Below are positions 1 to 7,652 of a DNA stretch of 64,000 nt, piece after piece. Both the position numbers and the translations under genes were made by a program. Each line of letters opens with the position of its first letter. The stretch's first letter is position 1. Source of the stretch: Escherichia coli. Its GTDB lineage: Bacteria > Pseudomonadota > Gammaproteobacteria > Enterobacterales > Enterobacteriaceae. Where the stretch lies: NCBI RefSeq assembly GCF_003018255.1, contig NZ_CP027440.1; one strand, 5' to 3'. The notes below the pieces were generated by a model that saw nothing but the letters and a program-made list of their open reading frames with translations, was not told the origin of the DNA and did not search any database.

Positions 1-445
1 TTTCAAGCTGTGCCACAAGCTGACGTAAGCCTTGCTCGTCCTCGTCTGTAAAGCGACCGAAGACGGTACTATCGATGTCGAGAACACCAATAATCTGATT
101 TTTCACCACCAGCGGCAGAACAATTTCAGAATTACTCGTCGCATCACAGGCAATATGCCCGTCAAACGCATGAACATCCTCGATACGCTGCACTTGATTG
201 CGGGCAACCGCAGTGCCGCACACGCCGCGCCCGACGGGTATCCGGACACAGGCAATTTTGCCCTGAAATGGTCCGAGCACCAGTGTATCGTCCTCAAGCA
301 AATAAAAACCTGCCCAGTTTACGTCAGTGAGACGCTCATATAACAACGCACTGGTGTTCGCAAGCGTTGCCAGAAAACTGGTTTCTCCTGCCATCAGCGC
401 GTTAAAGTCGCGATTTAAATCCGCGTAAAATTCTGTTTTGTTCAT
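1..445 (-). CDS. msrC: Free methionine-(R)-sulfoxide reductase, GAF domain (5' part of gene; ATG at 445, C-terminus beyond window edge)
   Basis: Reverse-strand translation from ATG at 443-445 reads MNKTEFYADLNRDFNALMAGETSFLATLANTSALLYERL..., recognised as the YebR/MsrC GAF protein. Not in the ORF track because there is no stop inside the window. Confidence 0.7.
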   Translation of the reverse strand, partial: MNKTEFYADLNRDFNALMAGETSFLATLANTSALLYERLTDVNWAGFYLLEDDTLVLGPFQGKIACVRIPVGRGVCGTAVARNQVQRIEDVHAFDGHIACDATSNSEIVLPLVVKNQIIGVLDIDSTVFGRFTDEDEQGLRQLVAQLE

Positions 446-574
446 TATATAATCACTTGGTTGTCTTACCAGGAACTGCCAGCCTATTAAAATAAGCATT
501 AAATGCGTTAATGCTCAAGATCATTCCCATCATGGGTTAAGATTAATGTTAATTCTTATTACATTTGGCACGTC

Positions 575-1858
575 ATGGCTCTTAACACACCACAAATTAC
601 GCCGACAAAAAAGATAACAGTGAGGGCTATCGGTGAGGAACTGCCGCGTGGTGATTACCAACGTTGCCCGCAATGTGACATGCTGTTTAGCCTGCCCGAG
701 ATAAATTCTCATCAAAGTGCCTATTGTCCGCGCTGTCAGGCAAAAATTCGTGACGGGCGCGACTGGTCGCTAACGCGCCTGGCGGCAATGGCCTTCACCA
801 TGCTGTTGCTGATGCCGTTTGCCTGGGGCGAACCGCTGTTGCATATCTGGCTGTTAGGCATTCGTATTGACGCCAACGTCATGCAAGGCATCTGGCAAAT
901 GACCAAACAGGGCGATGCGATAACGGGATCAATGGTCTTTTTTTGCGTTATTGGTGCCCCCCTCATTCTGGTGACCTCCATAGCTTATTTATGGTTTGGT
1001 AACCGACTGGGAATGAATCTACGTCCGGTACTGCTGATGCTTGAGCGACTGAAAGAGTGGGTAATGCTCGATATCTACCTGGTCGGCATTGGCGTTGCTT
1101 CTATAAAGGTACAGGATTATGCCCATATCCAGGCGGGTGTCGGCTTGTTCTCTTTTGTGGCGTTAGTGATTTTAACGACGGTGACGTTGTCACATCTCAA
1201 TGTCGAAGAACTGTGGGAGCGATTTTATCCACAGCGCCCCGCTACGTGTAGAGACGAGAAACTCCGTGTCTGTCTTGGGTGCCATTTTACCGGCTATCCT
1301 GATCAGCGTGGTCGCTGCCCGCGTTGCCATATCCCGCTACGCCTGCGTCGCCGTCATAGTCTGCAAAAATGCTGGGCGGCGCTGTTAGCGTCAATCGTTT
1401 TATTGTTACCTGCCAACCTGTTGCCTATTTCTATCATTTATCTGAATGGTGGCCGGCAGGAAGATACAATTCTTTCCGGGATTATGTCGCTGGCAAGTAG
1501 CAACATTGCGGTCGCCGGAATCGTGTTTATCGCCAGTATTCTGGTACCGTTTACTAAAGTGATCGTCATGTTCACTTTACTGTTGAGTATTCATTTTAAA
1601 TGCCAGCAAGGTTTACGCACACGCATTCTGTTACTGCGGATGGTGACCTGGATTGGTCGCTGGTCGATGCTCGACCTGTTTGTCATATCTTTAACCATGT
1701 CGCTGATTAATCGCGATCAGATCCTCGCTTTTACTATGGGACCGGCTGCGTTTTATTTCGGCGCAGCGGTAATTTTGACTATTCTTGCTGTGGAATGGCT
1801 GGACAGCCGCTTACTTTGGGATGCACATGAGTCAGGAAACGCCCGCTTCGACGACTGA
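575..1858 (+). CDS. letA: Inner-membrane PqiA-family protein of the LetAB envelope lipid-transport system
   Basis: 427 aa ORF with two CxxC...CxxC zinc-ribbon-like motifs and multiple hydrophobic segments. Lies immediately upstream of and overlaps the MCE protein gene. Matches YebS. Confidence 0.9.
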
Positions 1859-4460
1859 AGCGCAGATTAAAAATAAACGCCGTATCTCACCTTTCTGGCT
1901 GCTGCCGTTCATCGCGCTAATGATTGCCGGTTGGCTGATTTGGGATAGTTATCAGGACCGGGGTAATACCGTCACCATCGACTTTATGTCGGCGGATGGT
2001 ATTGTCCCGGGCCGCACCCCTGTTCGTTATCAGGGCGTTGAAGTCGGAACTGTGCAGGATATCAGCCTGAGCGACGATCTTCGTAAGATTGAAGTCAAGG
2101 TCAGCATCAAGTCTGATATGAAAGATGCGCTGCGCGAAGAGACACAGTTCTGGCTGGTGACGCCAAAGGCCTCACTGGCAGGTGTCTCCGGGCTGGATGC
2201 CCTCGTCGGTGGTAACTATATCGGCATGATGCCAGGTAAAGGTAAAGAGCAGGATCACTTTGTCGCACTCGATACCCAACCGAAGTATCGGCTGGATAAT
2301 GGCGATCTGATGATCCACCTGCAAGCCCCCGATCTCGGTTCACTGAACAGCGGTTCATTGGTCTATTTCCGTAAGATCCCGGTGGGTAAAGTCTACGACT
2401 ATGCCATCAATCCCAATAAGCAAGGCGTGGTGATTGATGTCCTGATCGAGCGGCGTTTTACCGACCTGGTGAAAAAAGGTAGCCGTTTCTGGAACGTTTC
2501 CGGCGTTGATGCCAACGTCAGTATCAGTGGCGCGAAGGTGAAACTGGAAAGTCTGGCGGCACTGGTTAACGGTGCGATTGCCTTCGATTCACCTGAAGAG
2601 TCGAAACCTGCCGAGGCGGAAGATACCTTTGGTCTGTATGAAGATCTCGCCCACAGCCAGCGTGGCGTAATAATAAAACTGGAACTGCCGAGTGGGGCCG
2701 GATTAACCGCCGACTCGACGCCGTTAATGTATCAGGGGCTGGAAGTCGGACAGCTGACTAAACTGGATTTAAATCCTGGTGGTAAAGTCACCGGAGAAAT
2801 GACCGTTGATCCCAGCGTCGTTACGCTGTTACGGGAAAATACCCGCATCGAATTACGTAATCCGAAATTATCCCTTAGCGATGCCAATCTCAGCGCCCTG
2901 CTGACCGGAAAAACCTTTGAGTTGGTGCCCGGCGATGGTGAGCCACGCAAAGAGTTCGTTGTTGTGCCAGGCGAAAAAGCCCTGCTACAAGAGCCGGATG
3001 TTCTGACACTGACCCTGACAGCACCAGAAAGTTACGGTATTGATGCTGGTCAGCCGCTCATTCTCCACGGTGTGCAAGTAGGCCAGGTTATTGATCGTAA
3101 ACTCACCAGCAAAGGCGTTACCTTTACCGTCGCCATCGAGCCTCAGCATCGCGAACTGGTAAAAGGCGATAGCAAATTTGTCGTCAACAGCCGTGTCGAC
3201 GTGAAGGTGGGGCTGGATGGCGTTGAGTTTCTCGGTGCCAGCGCCTCAGAATGGATTAACGGCGGGATACGTATTCTGCCGGGCGATAAAGGCGAGATGA
3301 AAGCCAGCTATCCACTGTATGCCAATCTGGAAAAAGCGCTGGAGAACAGCCTTAGCGATTTACCCACCACAACCGTAAGTTTGAGTGCAGAGACGCTGCC
3401 GGATGTGCAGGCAGGATCGGTAGTGCTGTACCGTAAATTTGAAGTTGGTGAAGTTATTACTGTGCGTCCGCGAGCTAACGCGTTTGATATCGATCTGCAT
3501 ATTAAGCCGGAGTATCGCAACCTTCTGACCAGCAACAGCGTGTTCTGGGCAGAAGGTGGGGCGAAAGTTCAGCTAAATGGTAGTGGTCTGACCGTACAGG
3601 CATCCCCGCTCTCCAGAGCATTAAAGGGGGCTATTAGCTTCGATAACCTCAGCGGTGCCAGCGCCAGTCAGCGTAAAGGCGACAAGCGTATTCTGTATGC
3701 TTCCGAAACAGCGGCCCGTGCGGTTGGCGGGCAAATTACGCTTCACGCTTTCGATGCCGGAAAACTGGCGGTCGGGATGCCAATTCGCTATCTCGGTATT
3801 GATATCGGGCAAATCCAGACGCTGGATCTGATTACCGCGCGCAATGAAGTACAGGCAAAGGCGGTACTTTACCCGGAATATGTCCAGACCTTTGCACGCG
3901 GTGGTACACGCTTCTCAGTGGTCACACCGCAAATTTCGGCAGCTGGCGTTGAGCATCTTGATACTATCCTCCAGCCGTATATCAACGTCGAACCAGGCCG
4001 GGGCAATCCTCGGCGCGACTTTGAATTACAAGAGGCTACCATAACTGATTCGCGTTACCTGGATGGCTTAAGCATTATTGTTGAAGCGCCGGAAGCCGGT
4101 TCGTTAGGCATCGGTACGCCTGTGCTGTTCCGTGGTCTGGAAGTCGGTACGGTTACCGGAATGACGCTGGGGACATTGTCAGATCGCGTGATGATTGCGA
4201 TGCGCATCAGTAAACGCTATCAACACCTGGTGCGTAACAATTCCGTCTTCTGGTTGGCATCGGGTTACAGTCTGGACTTTGGTCTGACGGGCGGCGTAGT
4301 GAAAACCGGCACCTTTAACCAGTTTATCCGTGGCGGCATCGCCTTCGCCACGCCTCCGGGTACGCCACTGGCACCGAAAGCCCAGGAAGGCAAGCACTTC
4401 CTGTTGCAGGAAAGTGAACCGAAAGAGTGGCGTGAATGGGGAACTGCGCTTCCCAAATAA
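1827..4460 (+). CDS. letB: Multi-MCE-domain periplasm-spanning tunnel protein LetB
   Basis: 877 aa from [27 protein letters not shown] (ORF track starts 14 codons earlier). Repeated MCE-like modules and an N-terminal TM anchor; overlaps the letA 3' end by 32 nt. Matches YebT. Confidence 0.9.
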
Positions 4461-4533
4461 TGCCCACTGCTCCGGCGTGCCTGCGCCGGAGCGTTTATGC
4501 TAAACTGCGCGCCTGTTTTTTTGCCAGTGGTAT

Positions 4534-5979
4534 ATGCTCGTGGCCCAACACACCGTTTATTTCCCGGACGCCTTTCTGACACAAATGCGCGAAGCGATGC
4601 CTTCGACGCTCTCTTTTGATGATTTTCTTGCCGCCTGTCAGCGCCCGTTGCGCCGCAGCATTCGCGTTAATACGCTGAAAACCTCCGTTGCTGATTTCCT
4701 GCAATTAACTGCTCCTTATGGCTGGACGCTTACGCCAATTCCGTGGTGTGAAGAAGGTTTCTGGATTGAACGCGACAGTGAAGATGCATTGCCGTTGGGT
4801 AGTACCGCCGAGCATTTAAGCGGCCTGTTTTATATTCAGGAAGCCAGTTCAATGTTGCCTGTTGCCGCCTTGTTTGCTGACGGTAATGCACCACAGCGGG
4901 TGATGGATGTCGCTGCCGCGCCCGGCTCCAAAACGACGCAAATTGCCGCGCGGATGAATAACGAAGGGGCAATCCTTGCCAATGAGTTTTCCGCCAGTCG
5001 GGTAAAAGTGTTACATGCCAATATCAGCCGCTGTGGCATCAGTAATGTTGCGCTCACGCATTTTGATGGCCGCGTATTTGGTGCGGCAGTGCCAGAAATG
5101 TTCGATGCCATTTTGCTGGACGCTCCCTGCTCCGGCGAAGGCGTGGTGCGTAAAGATCCCGATGCGCTAAAAAACTGGTCACCAGAAAGCAATCAGGAAA
5201 TCGCAGCGACCCAACGGGAACTGATCGACAGCGCCTTTCATGCATTACGTCCTGGCGGTACGCTGGTTTACTCGACCTGTACCTTAAACCGGGAAGAAAA
5301 CGAAGCCGTTTGCCTGTGGCTGAAAGAGACTTATCCCGACGCAGTAGAGTTTTTACCGCTTGGCGATCTCTTCCCTGGTGCAAACAAGGCGCTGACCGAG
5401 GAAGGCTTTTTGCATGTTTTCCCACAAATTTACGACTGCGAAGGCTTCTTCGTTGCTCGTCTGCGTAAAACTCAGGCGATTCCCGCCTTACCCACCCCAA
5501 AATACAAAGTGGGCAATTTCCCGTTCAGCCCGGTGAAAGATCGCGAAGCCGGACAAATTCGTCAGGCGGCTGCAAGTGTTGGCTTAAACTGGGATGAAAA
5601 CCTGCGACTCTGGCAGCGTGACAAAGAACTGTGGTTGTTCCCGGTGGGCATTGAAGCCCTGATCGGTAAAGTCCGATTTTCTCGCTTGGGGATTAAACTT
5701 GCCGAAACGCACAACAAAGGTTATCGCTGGCAGCATGAAGCCGTTATTGCCCTTGCCTCCCCCGACAATGTGAACGCTTTTGAACTGACACCGCAGGAAG
5801 CGGAAGAGTGGTATCGCGGGCGCGATGTTTACCCGCAAGCCGCGCCAGTAGCGGATGATGTATTGGTTACTTTCCAGCATCAGCCGATTGGTTTAGCCAA
5901 ACGGATTGGTTCGCGACTGAAAAACAGCTACCCGCGTGAACTGGTGCGCGATGGGAAACTTTTTACCGGTAACGCCTGA
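4534..5979 (+). CDS. rsmF: 16S rRNA m5C1407 methyltransferase
   Basis: 481 aa ORF with SAM-binding motif ([11 protein letters not shown]) and Sun/NOL1-type catalytic region (DAPCSGEG). Matches RsmF/YebU. Confidence 0.9.
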
Positions 5980-6096
5980 CAGCGCACAAAAAAAGCGCAC
6001 TTTTTGACTGGCACATTCGGCTGCCTCAACTAGGCTGAAAAATGGTGCGATCGGACTGGTCGTACCACAACCGGCAGCTAAATGGAGAGCACGAAG

Positions 6097-6333
6097 ATGA
6101 AAACCAGTGTGCGCATAGGCGCTTTTGAAATCGACGACGGCGAATTACACGGCGAATCGCCGGGTGATCGAACGTTAACCATTCCTTGTAAATCAGACCC
6201 CGATTTATGTATGCAACTGGATGCCTGGGATGCTGAAACCAGTATTCCTGCCCTGCTAAATGGCGAACACTCTGTCCTTTACCGTACCCGTTACGATCAA
6301 CAATCTGATGCCTGGATTATGCGTCTTGCCTGA
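6097..6333 (+). CDS. yebV: Small uncharacterised protein YebV
   Basis: 78 aa from MKTSVRIGAFEIDDGELHG; position between rsmF and pphA as in E. coli. Confidence 0.7.
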   Translation: MKTSVRIGAFEIDDGELHGESPGDRTLTIPCKSDPDLCMQLDAWDAETSIPALLNGEHSVLYRTRYDQQSDAWIMRLA

Positions 6334-6437
6334 TCCAAAAAGAACCCGTCGGCATGGCGGGTTATTTGTCCTGGTTATTTCCCCGTTGTAAAATCTCTCC
6401 TAAACTTAACGGTACGGCACCACACTTCGGGGATGAA

Positions 6438-6629
6438 ATGTTCGCGCTGGTACTTTTTGTTTGCTACCTGGATGGCGGTTGTGAAGATATTGTTGTGGAT
6501 GTCTACAACACGGAACAGCAGTGTCTTTATTCTATGAGCGATCAACGGATCCGCCATGGCGGTTGTTTTCCAATCGAGGATTTTATTGATGGTTTCTGGC
6601 GACCAGCACAGGAGTACGGTGATTTTTAA
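6438..6629 (+). CDS. yebW: Small uncharacterised protein YebW
   Basis: 63 aa from MFALVLFVCYLDGGCEDIVVDVYNTEQQC; conserved small ORF, start chosen by recollection of YebW. Confidence 0.6.
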   Translation: MFALVLFVCYLDGGCEDIVVDVYNTEQQCLYSMSDQRIRHGGCFPIEDFIDGFWRPAQEYGDF

Positions 6630-7289
6630 TTATTGCAATTGCACAAGAGTCAGTTCGCCCCCAAAGACAGCACCGGTATCAATATAATGCAGGTTGCCAA
6701 TATCCACGCGATGTCGCAACGGTGTATGACCAAACCAGAAATGATCAGCACCTTTAATTCCCTGCCCTTTTGGGCGTTCACCTAATCGCGAGCGGCTCCA
6801 CAAGACCTGATGCAAATCAACGTCCTTTTGCCATTCATAAACATCATCCGGATAATCGGCATGGGCAATAACATGTTTGCCGGTGCGACTGTGTACTTCA
6901 AGAATAAAGGGCAAATGCTGACATTTTTCCAGCGCCGTTTTCGCTTGTTTCTGTTGATTATCTGCCAGCGCAATAAACCAGTCGCCGCCATTCATGAACC
7001 ACAAAGACATCTGCTGGGATGCCAGCGCATCCATCGCCATCTGTTCATGATTGCCTCTTACCGCACGAACCCAATGTTGTTCCAGTAACTGCAGGCAACG
7101 TAAACTTTGCGGCCCACGATCGATAACGTCTCCCACTGAGATAAGTAAATCTCGCCACGGATCAAAACGACAATGCCATAATTTGCGGCGCAACTGCTCA
7201 AGACAACCGTGTATATCGCCTGAAAGCCAGATATGTCGCCATTGATGACCCGCAATTCTCTGATAAACGGGCGCAGGCTGTTTCATCAA
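6630..7289 (-). CDS. pphA: Serine/threonine protein phosphatase 1 (lambda-phosphatase-like metallophosphoesterase)
   Basis: 219 aa with metallophosphatase motifs GDIHG, GDVIDRG, GNHE. Matches PphA/PrpA. Confidence 0.85.
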   Translation of the reverse strand: MMKQPAPVYQRIAGHQWRHIWLSGDIHGCLEQLRRKLWHCRFDPWRDLLISVGDVIDRGPQSLRCLQLLEQHWVRAVRGNHEQMAMDALASQQMSLWFMNGGDWFIALADNQQKQAKTALEKCQHLPFILEVHSRTGKHVIAHADYPDDVYEWQKDVDLHQVLWSRSRLGERPKGQGIKGADHFWFGHTPLRHRVDIGNLHYIDTGAVFGGELTLVQLQ

Positions 7290-7384
7290 TATTTTCCTCC
7301 CGCGCTAAAGATCACATAATCTTAACAAGAATGTTAAAAAACGCTGGACGCAGACAGTAGAGTGTGTGTTATGGTTGACTATAA

Positions 7385-7652
7385 AGTCAGCGAAGGGAAT
7401 GCTTCTGGCTTTTAACAGATAAAAAGAGACCGAACACGATTCCTGTATTCGGTCCAGGGAAATGGCTCTTGGGAGAGAGCCGTGCGCTAAAAGTTGGCAT
7501 TAATGCAGGCTTAGTTGCCTTGCTCTTTAAGAATAGATGACGACGCCAGGTTTTCCAGTTTGCGTGCAAAATGGTCAATAAAAAGCGTGGTGGTCATCAG
7601 CTTAAATGTTAAAAACCGCCCGTTCTGGTGAAAGAACTGAGGCGGTTTTTTA
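7385..7652 (+). ncRNA. ryeA: RyeA (SraC) small RNA, antisense to and fully overlapping SdsR
   Basis: Established locus organisation (RyeA encoded opposite SdsR between pphA and yebY). A plus-strand hairpin plus T-tract at about 7613-7651 can serve as its terminator. The 5' end is not determinable from sequence. Confidence 0.45.
7420..7523 (-). ncRNA. sdsR: SdsR (RyeB) sigmaS-dependent small RNA
   Basis: Minus strand reads GCAAGGCAACTAAGCCTGCATTAATGCCAACTTTTAGCGCACGGCTCTCTCCCAAGAGCCATTTCCCTGGACCGAATACAGGAATCGTGTTCGGTCTCTTTTT, which matches SdsR as I recall it. A CTATTCT -10-like element lies just upstream on that strand and a GGTCTC-T-tract terminator at the 3' end. Confidence 0.7.

Follow-up and report, generated by a model that had tools for sequence, protein, structure and literature searches.

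Near the start of the window, the 64,000-nt stretch of Escherichia coli DNA that was analyzed, lie the genes letA and letB (yebS and yebT), which we regard as almost certainly the native letAB (yebST) operon of this species (Table 1). Megablast of positions 400 to 4600 returned annotated E. coli yebS/yebT as the best match, with 99.6% nucleotide identity, and recovered the locus in 5424 of 5426 complete E. coli genomes, with msrC, yebS, yebT, and rsmF as the annotated features. The order msrC (minus strand), letA, letB, rsmF, yebV, yebW, and pphA (minus strand) is common to the window, K-12, and the best match. The first-pass annotation, made from the sequence alone, had described the system as positioned exactly as in E. 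coli, and gene order, gene lengths, and the 32-nt overlap of the two genes do match those of K-12 b1833/b1834.

Table 1. Features of the letAB locus (coordinates are positions in the window; aa, amino acids of the encoded protein)
Feature	Coordinates	Strand	Basis or remark
msrC (free methionine-(R)-sulfoxide reductase), 5' part	1..445	-	Divergent upstream neighbor, cut by the window start; named in the megablast feature list
msrC-letA divergent intergenic region	446..574		One sigma-70-like consensus match, 466-493 (+)
letA (yebS), 427 aa, inner-membrane PqiA-family lipid-loading subunit	575..1858	+	ATG ORF; Pfam, NCBIfam, K-12, and PDB matches
LetA N-terminal zinc ribbon, aa 24-65	644..769	+	CPQC aa 31-34, CPRC aa 51-54; limits from PMC13017536
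LetA TMD-N, aa 66-218	770..1228	+	Limits from PMC13017536; first Pfam PqiA stretch
LetA C-terminal zinc ribbon, aa 219-261	1229..1357	+	CLGC aa 233-236, CPRC aa 248-251; holds R225C (nt 1247)
LetA TMD-C, aa 261-418	1355..1828	+	Best Pfam PqiA stretch and limits from PMC13017536
GGGA, weak Shine-Dalgarno-like element for letB	1818..1821	+	Inside conserved LetA Trp-Asp codons; pairing ends 4-5 nt before ATG 1827
letA/letB overlap, 32 nt	1827..1858	+	LetA aa 418-427 and stop in one frame, LetB aa 1-11 in another
letB (yebT), 877 aa, N-terminal TM helix, then seven MCE domains	1827..4460	+	ORF, Pfam, K-12, PDB
MCE domain 1, aa 45-137	1959..2237	+	Pfam and phmmer
MCE domain 2, aa 160-250	2304..2576	+	phmmer
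MCE domain 3, aa 279-369	2661..2933	+	phmmer
MCE domain 4, aa 391-480	2997..3266	+	phmmer
MCE domain 5, aa 513-602	3363..3632	+	phmmer
MCE domain 6, aa 633-726	3723..4004	+	phmmer
MCE domain 7, aa 746-837	4062..4337	+	phmmer
GC-rich hairpin, 11 pairs, possible operon terminator	4468..4493	+	8 nt past the letB stop; consensus match only, T-tail imperfect

The boundary of msrC was placed from the annotation of K-12 and H1, in which msrC ends 130 nt before letA. A consensus scan for promoters and terminators gave match counts no greater than in shuffled sequence, and the sigma-70-like match upstream of letA, which scored 9 of 12, is therefore no evidence of a promoter; both this site and the hairpin downstream of letB are listed only as candidates. 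No Rfam match was found in or adjoining letAB in a scan of positions 1 to 7500 (E ≤ 1), the only matches being the known SraC/RyeA and SdsR/RyeB pair from position 7417 onwards.

The protein encoded by letA had been assigned to the PqiA family and described as having two pairs of CxxC motifs, and the family models bear out the assignment: LetA scores 701.3 bits against TIGR00155 (PqiA/YebS family; cutoff, 260.35) over aa 16 to 417 and matches Pfam PqiA (PF04403) at 1e-81 in two stretches, with the best stretch at aa 263 to 418. It also matches chain A of the solved complex (PDB 9n8w_A; E = 2.7e-290). The four CxxC motifs begin at aa 31, 51, 233, and 248 and are spaced as CxxC-Xn-CxxC with n = 16 in the first pair and n = 11 in the second, within the range (n = 11-18) that, followed by a transmembrane domain (TMD), defines the zinc-ribbon module (PMC13017536). 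Together with the two PqiA stretches, the motif pairs give two modules in which a TMD follows a tetracysteine zinc ribbon. It has been reported for K-12 LetA that both CXXC-Xn-CXXC ribbons bind zinc, that their cysteines are essential, and that the transmembrane domains are tetraspanin-like (PMC13017536). Experiments have further shown that lipid loading into LetB depends on LetA (PMC13017536). On the strength of its 99.8% identity to the K-12 protein, LetA of the window would be expected to bind zinc and to load lipids into LetB in the same manner.

LetB aligns with PDB 9n8w_B over aa 1 to 877. A hydrophobic N-terminal segment is visible in its translation, and residues 14 to 45 have been modeled as a transmembrane helix. 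The multiple tandem MCE modules that had been noted for LetB number seven in a domain scan with Pfam MlaD/MCE (PF02470; 1.6e-84, seven stretches) and with phmmer, where a search seeded with MCE1 alone already recovers all seven. Structures are available for the LetAB complex (PDB 9n8w and 9n8x) and for LetB (6v0c-6v0j, 6kz3, 6kz4, 7see, and 6vci). By analogy with these structures of the near-identical K-12 protein, LetB of the window would form a hexameric hydrophobic tunnel that spans the periplasm.

Both genes are intact, as the first-pass annotation had stated. No frameshift or truncation was found in letA or letB in comparison with K-12, and the protein lengths are equal (427 and 877 aa). 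LetA is identical to its K-12 counterpart at 426 of 427 positions, with R225C as the sole difference, and LetB at 875 of 877 positions, with the differences S35G and H388Q. Against these three amino acid differences (one in LetA and two in LetB) stand 104 nucleotide differences in the 3886 nt of letAB, so that nearly all of the changes are synonymous, a pattern that indicates strong purifying selection. For each of LetA and LetB, the identical protein sequence has been recorded on at least 1000 contigs.

Because identity in the initial search did not exceed 99.6%, an origin of the window in a relative of E. coli (Shigella or another Escherichia) was considered. This was ruled out with a 25-kb query, which is 99.9% identical to E. 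coli JNE23-011 and therefore identifies the window as E. coli. The lower local identity is attributed to a short segment of letA. Twelve of the 14 single-nucleotide differences from the best whole-region relative fall in letA, between nt 1024 and 1516 of the window, and this segment is 100% identical to that of seven other complete genomes, including those of PCN033 and CFSAN018748. Such clustering, combined with perfect identity to other genomes, points to a homologous-recombination patch of about 0.5 kb, whose allele is typical of other lineages within E. coli. The R225C substitution is carried by the patch and gives LetA a twelfth cysteine, which lies in the C-terminal zinc ribbon. The substitution is most likely neutral, because no noncysteine residue of the zinc ribbons is mutation sensitive (PMC13017536) and because the allele is widespread, as seen from the number of contigs with the exact LetA sequence.

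LetAB had been called a second PqiAB-like paralogue, and sequence comparison agrees that it is a paralogue of pqiAB and not pqiAB itself, because the identities are low and neither LetA nor LetB reaches the cutoff of the corresponding equivalog model (PqiA or PqiB). LetA shares 29% identity with K-12 PqiA over 396 aa and scores 211 against the PqiA equivalog NF011683 (cutoff, 562); LetB shares 33% identity with K-12 PqiB over the first two MCE domains and scores 475 against the PqiB equivalog (cutoff, 525). The opposite reading, in which the locus would be pqiAB itself or an additional MCE system gained by horizontal transfer rather than core letAB, could draw on the high score of LetB against the PqiB model (475 bits) and on the name "paraquat-inducible protein A/B" used in older sources. 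It is refuted by the equivalog scores, the identities, and the K-12 gene neighborhood, and it is further opposed by the seven MCE domains, compared with three in PqiB, and by the lack of a counterpart of the third gene, pqiC, after letB. The K-12 letAB neighborhood and the presence of the locus in essentially all E. coli genomes also speak against this reading, and we consider the probability of either version to be negligible. The core letAB assignment is retained: LetA is orthologous to LetA rather than to PqiA (426/427 identities, 211 versus 562 against NF011683, and the K-12 letA neighborhood), and LetB is orthologous to LetB rather than to PqiB (875/877 identities, PDB 9n8w_B over aa 1 to 877, and 475 versus 525).

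The 32-nt overlap proposed in the first-pass annotation was recovered, from ATG 1827 to position 1858, as in K-12 MG1655 (letA, b1833, 1916258..1917541; letB, b1834, 1917510..1920143), and the junction sequence is identical in the window and K-12. A 32-bp overlap of letA and letB has been stated explicitly in the literature (Santarossa et al., Nature 2026, PMC13017536). The figure depends on the choice of the letB start, since the longest mechanical open reading frame of letB begins with TTG at 1785 and contains in-frame ATG codons at both 1821 and 1827. ATG 1827 is supported as the start by the K-12 annotation, by the 877-aa chain of PDB 9n8w_B, by the GGGA about 5 nt upstream, and by its conservation in other genera. 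TTG 1785 and ATG 1821 were rejected because neither has a properly spaced Shine-Dalgarno (SD) element and because annotation and solved structure both correspond to the 877-aa form. GGGA is the only SD-like element for letB; the calculated anti-SD duplex is -4.0 kcal/mol for letB ATG 1827 and -1.5 kcal/mol for letA ATG 575, compared with -8.7 and -8.9 kcal/mol for K-12 pqiA and pqiB, respectively. LetA residues 419 to 427 are without cryo-EM density, with TMD-C ending at residue 418 (PMC13017536), and the overlap codes only for this C-terminal tail of LetA and for the LetB N terminus ahead of the transmembrane helix.

To follow the junction across genera, one genome per species was scanned with a degenerate DNA pattern, which yielded 120 loci. 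The pattern represents a motif in TMD-C of LetA and lies upstream of the overlap, a position chosen to keep the overlap itself from biasing the sample; the junctions were read automatically, with letB starts in other genera picked by homology to the E. coli N terminus. An overlap of exactly 32 nt was found in 25 Enterobacterales genera, including Escherichia, Citrobacter, Enterobacter, Kluyvera, Serratia, Yersinia, Rahnella, Pantoea, Erwinia, and Hafnia. Other lengths were 26 nt in Providencia and Moellerella, 29 nt in Mangrovibacter, 35 nt in Acerihabitans, 38 and 32 nt in Tatumella, 41 nt in Edwardsiella, and 50 nt in Brenneria; Pectobacterium and Dickeya have no overlap (-2, -15, and -16 nt, negative values being gaps). 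The overlap is 8 nt in Vibrio, 14 or 23 nt in Shewanella, mostly 8 or 17 nt in Pseudomonas (mostly six-MCE proteins), and 4 nt in Amphritea. Across 47 orthologous junctions with the 32-nt overlap, TGGGA(T/C) is near-invariant, and third-codon-position conservation inside the overlap is 0.90 in the letA frame and 0.84 in the letB frame, compared with 0.68 (letA) and 0.63 (letB) in the single-coding flanks. The higher conservation within the overlap is as predicted by dual coding alone and is no proof of a regulatory role.

The first-pass annotation took the overlap to imply translational coupling. The layout is that of a coupled pair, with the start of letB within the end of letA on the same strand, and coupling of letB to letA is plausible given the weak letB SD element (-4.0 kcal/mol) and the conserved overlap. 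The two genes are cotranscribed, and letB begins 32 nt before letA ends, in another reading frame. Ribosomes that complete letA would therefore travel across the weak ribosome-binding site of letB, and this passage probably helps initiation at letB. Coupling as the main control of letB is disfavored, because a plasmid in which letA and letB were refactored as nonoverlapping open reading frames works and was used for functional assays (PMC13017536). No start-masking RNA fold beyond chance was found at the junction (positions 1775 to 1875) in comparison with shuffled sequence (z = 0.32), which, like the lack of an overlap in Pectobacterium and Dickeya, also argues against it. In the complex, one LetA sits under ring 1 of the LetB hexamer, a stoichiometry of 1:6 (Santarossa et al., Nature 2026, PMC13017536); reinitiation alone is therefore insufficient, and letB must also initiate independently or more efficiently.

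The same observations can be read to mean that the overlap is an evolutionary by-product without a role in expression, in which a dispensable LetA tail runs past a letB start that initiates independently. The restriction of the overlap to LetA aa 418 to 427, of which 419 to 427 lack cryo-EM density, the functional refactored construct, the variation in overlap length outside the core Enterobacterales (4, 8, 14, 17, 23, 26, 29, 35, 38, 41, and 50 nt) and its absence from Pectobacterium and Dickeya, the lack of special RNA structure at the junction, and the independent letB initiation required by the 1:6 stoichiometry are all consistent with this view. However, most of the sampled gammaproteobacterial loci keep some overlap of the PqiA-like and MCE genes, with exactly 32 nt in 25 genera; a weak letB SD element inside letA codons is the usual setting for coupling; and the plasmid result tells little about native expression levels. 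We consider the by-product explanation rather unlikely, though deserving of weight, and retain a contribution of coupling to letB initiation as the plausible reading. More speculatively, the overlap and the ribosome-binding site within the invariant LetA Trp-Asp codons might constitute a dedicated device that makes synthesis of LetB depend on translation of LetA yet permits a 1:6 ratio, and, separately, R225C might supply the C-terminal zinc ribbon with a fifth cysteine and thereby have an effect related to redox or metals; we judge this proposal to be improbable.

With regard to function, LetA would be a single-copy inner membrane protein of two zinc-ribbon and tetraspanin-like modules, seated beneath ring 1 of the LetB hexamer. 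It would open ring 1 and hand inner membrane phospholipids into a hydrophobic tunnel of about 225 Å, which seven stacked LetB MCE rings would form across the periplasm towards the outer membrane. A cycle of lipid export from the inner to the outer membrane has been proposed as a model (PMC13017536), and we infer export as the direction of transport here.

The first-pass annotation judged the system not to be novel, and we concur: LetAB structures and the 32-bp overlap are in print, and letAB of the window is thus known in every element, the operon structure and the gene overlap included. As the result of a scan, the locus carries little weight, being an intact and correctly read example of a core operon for envelope-lipid transport in E. 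coli. The occurrence of the exact 32-nt overlap in 25 genera, its restriction to disordered tails of LetA and LetB, and the contrast with pqiAB are new but minor and incremental; they are of possible interest for research on operon expression or LetAB assembly.

The closest known system is LetAB of K-12 (YebS/YebT, b1833/b1834), which has the same protein lengths, 32-nt overlap, flanking genes, four CxxC motifs, and seven MCE domains and is 99.8% identical in both proteins. The window differs from it in LetA R225C, in LetB S35G and H388Q, in 104 mostly synonymous nucleotides, and in the allele at letA 1024-1516. PqiABC (b0950-b0952; PqiB, PDB 5uvn) resembles LetAB in having a PqiA-family inner membrane protein of two zinc-ribbon and TMD modules, an MCE protein with an N-terminal transmembrane helix as its anchor, and the gene order A then B. 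In contrast to the seven MCE rings of LetB, PqiB has three MCE domains and a C-terminal helical needle, and the Pqi system includes an outer membrane lipoprotein, PqiC, whereas letAB has no third gene of that kind here. The genes pqiA and pqiB lie 4 nt apart and have strong SD elements (-8.7/-8.9 kcal/mol), in contrast to the 32-nt overlap and weak letB SD element of letAB. MlaD of the MlaFEDB system shares with LetB the MCE fold and the principle of the hexameric ring, and LetB matches the MlaD model TIGR04430 weakly (72 bits; cutoff, 135). While the single-MCE protein MlaD is powered by an ABC transporter, LetAB is without an ATPase, and the fold of LetA is unrelated (PMC13017536).

The window differs from its closest whole-region relative by 14 SNPs. 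Twelve of them fall within positions 1024-1516, inside letA, and this segment matches seven other complete E. coli genomes, such as that of PCN033, at 100% identity. Because of that identity, letA 1024-1516 looks like a short homologous-recombination patch. The LetA difference R225C (nt 1247), which places an additional cysteine in the C-terminal zinc ribbon, lies within it.

In a search of complete E. coli genomes, a letAB match was absent from 2 of 5,426. In one E. coli record, a copy of letAB sits on a replicon that is labelled a plasmid. Exact-sequence look-up placed both LetA (427 amino acids) and LetB (877 amino acids) in a single "cluster 1" of 16,074 members. This shared cluster is probably a display artefact; it is also conceivable, because the two genes overlap by 32 nt, that a frameshifted LetA-LetB fusion linked both proteins during clustering.

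Features downstream of letAB (window coordinates)
Feature	Position	Strand	Remarks
GC-rich hairpin, 11 bp	4468-4493	+	between letB stop (8 nt after) and rsmF; T-tail imperfect
rsmF	4534-5979		earliest ATG of the ORF at 4534
SraC/RyeA	7417-7500 and beyond	+	Rfam match, 108.6 bits (partial)
SdsR/RyeB	7417-7500 and beyond	-	Rfam match, 93.2 bits (partial)

The hairpin could serve as the letAB terminator or represent a REP-like element; a run of seven T residues lies downstream of it, at about 4516-4522. By the length of the K-12 annotation (1,440 nt), rsmF would start at GTG 4540 rather than at the earliest ATG, which puts the candidates two codons apart. The bit scores of the two small RNAs are those of partial matches, which run past the edge of the searched range. 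The same arrangement, with SraC/RyeA and SdsR/RyeB overlapping in antisense downstream of pphA, is found in K-12.

Among the letAB-like loci of the pattern scan, the Pseudomonas and Stutzerimonas homologues (L023, L033, L042, and others) code for proteins of about 766 amino acids with six MCE domains, and their overlap is 8 or 17 nt. The Pectobacterium and Dickeya orthologues (L056, L098, and L107) have no letA/letB overlap, with gaps of 2 to 16 nt instead, whereas relatives of these genera retain the 32-nt overlap.
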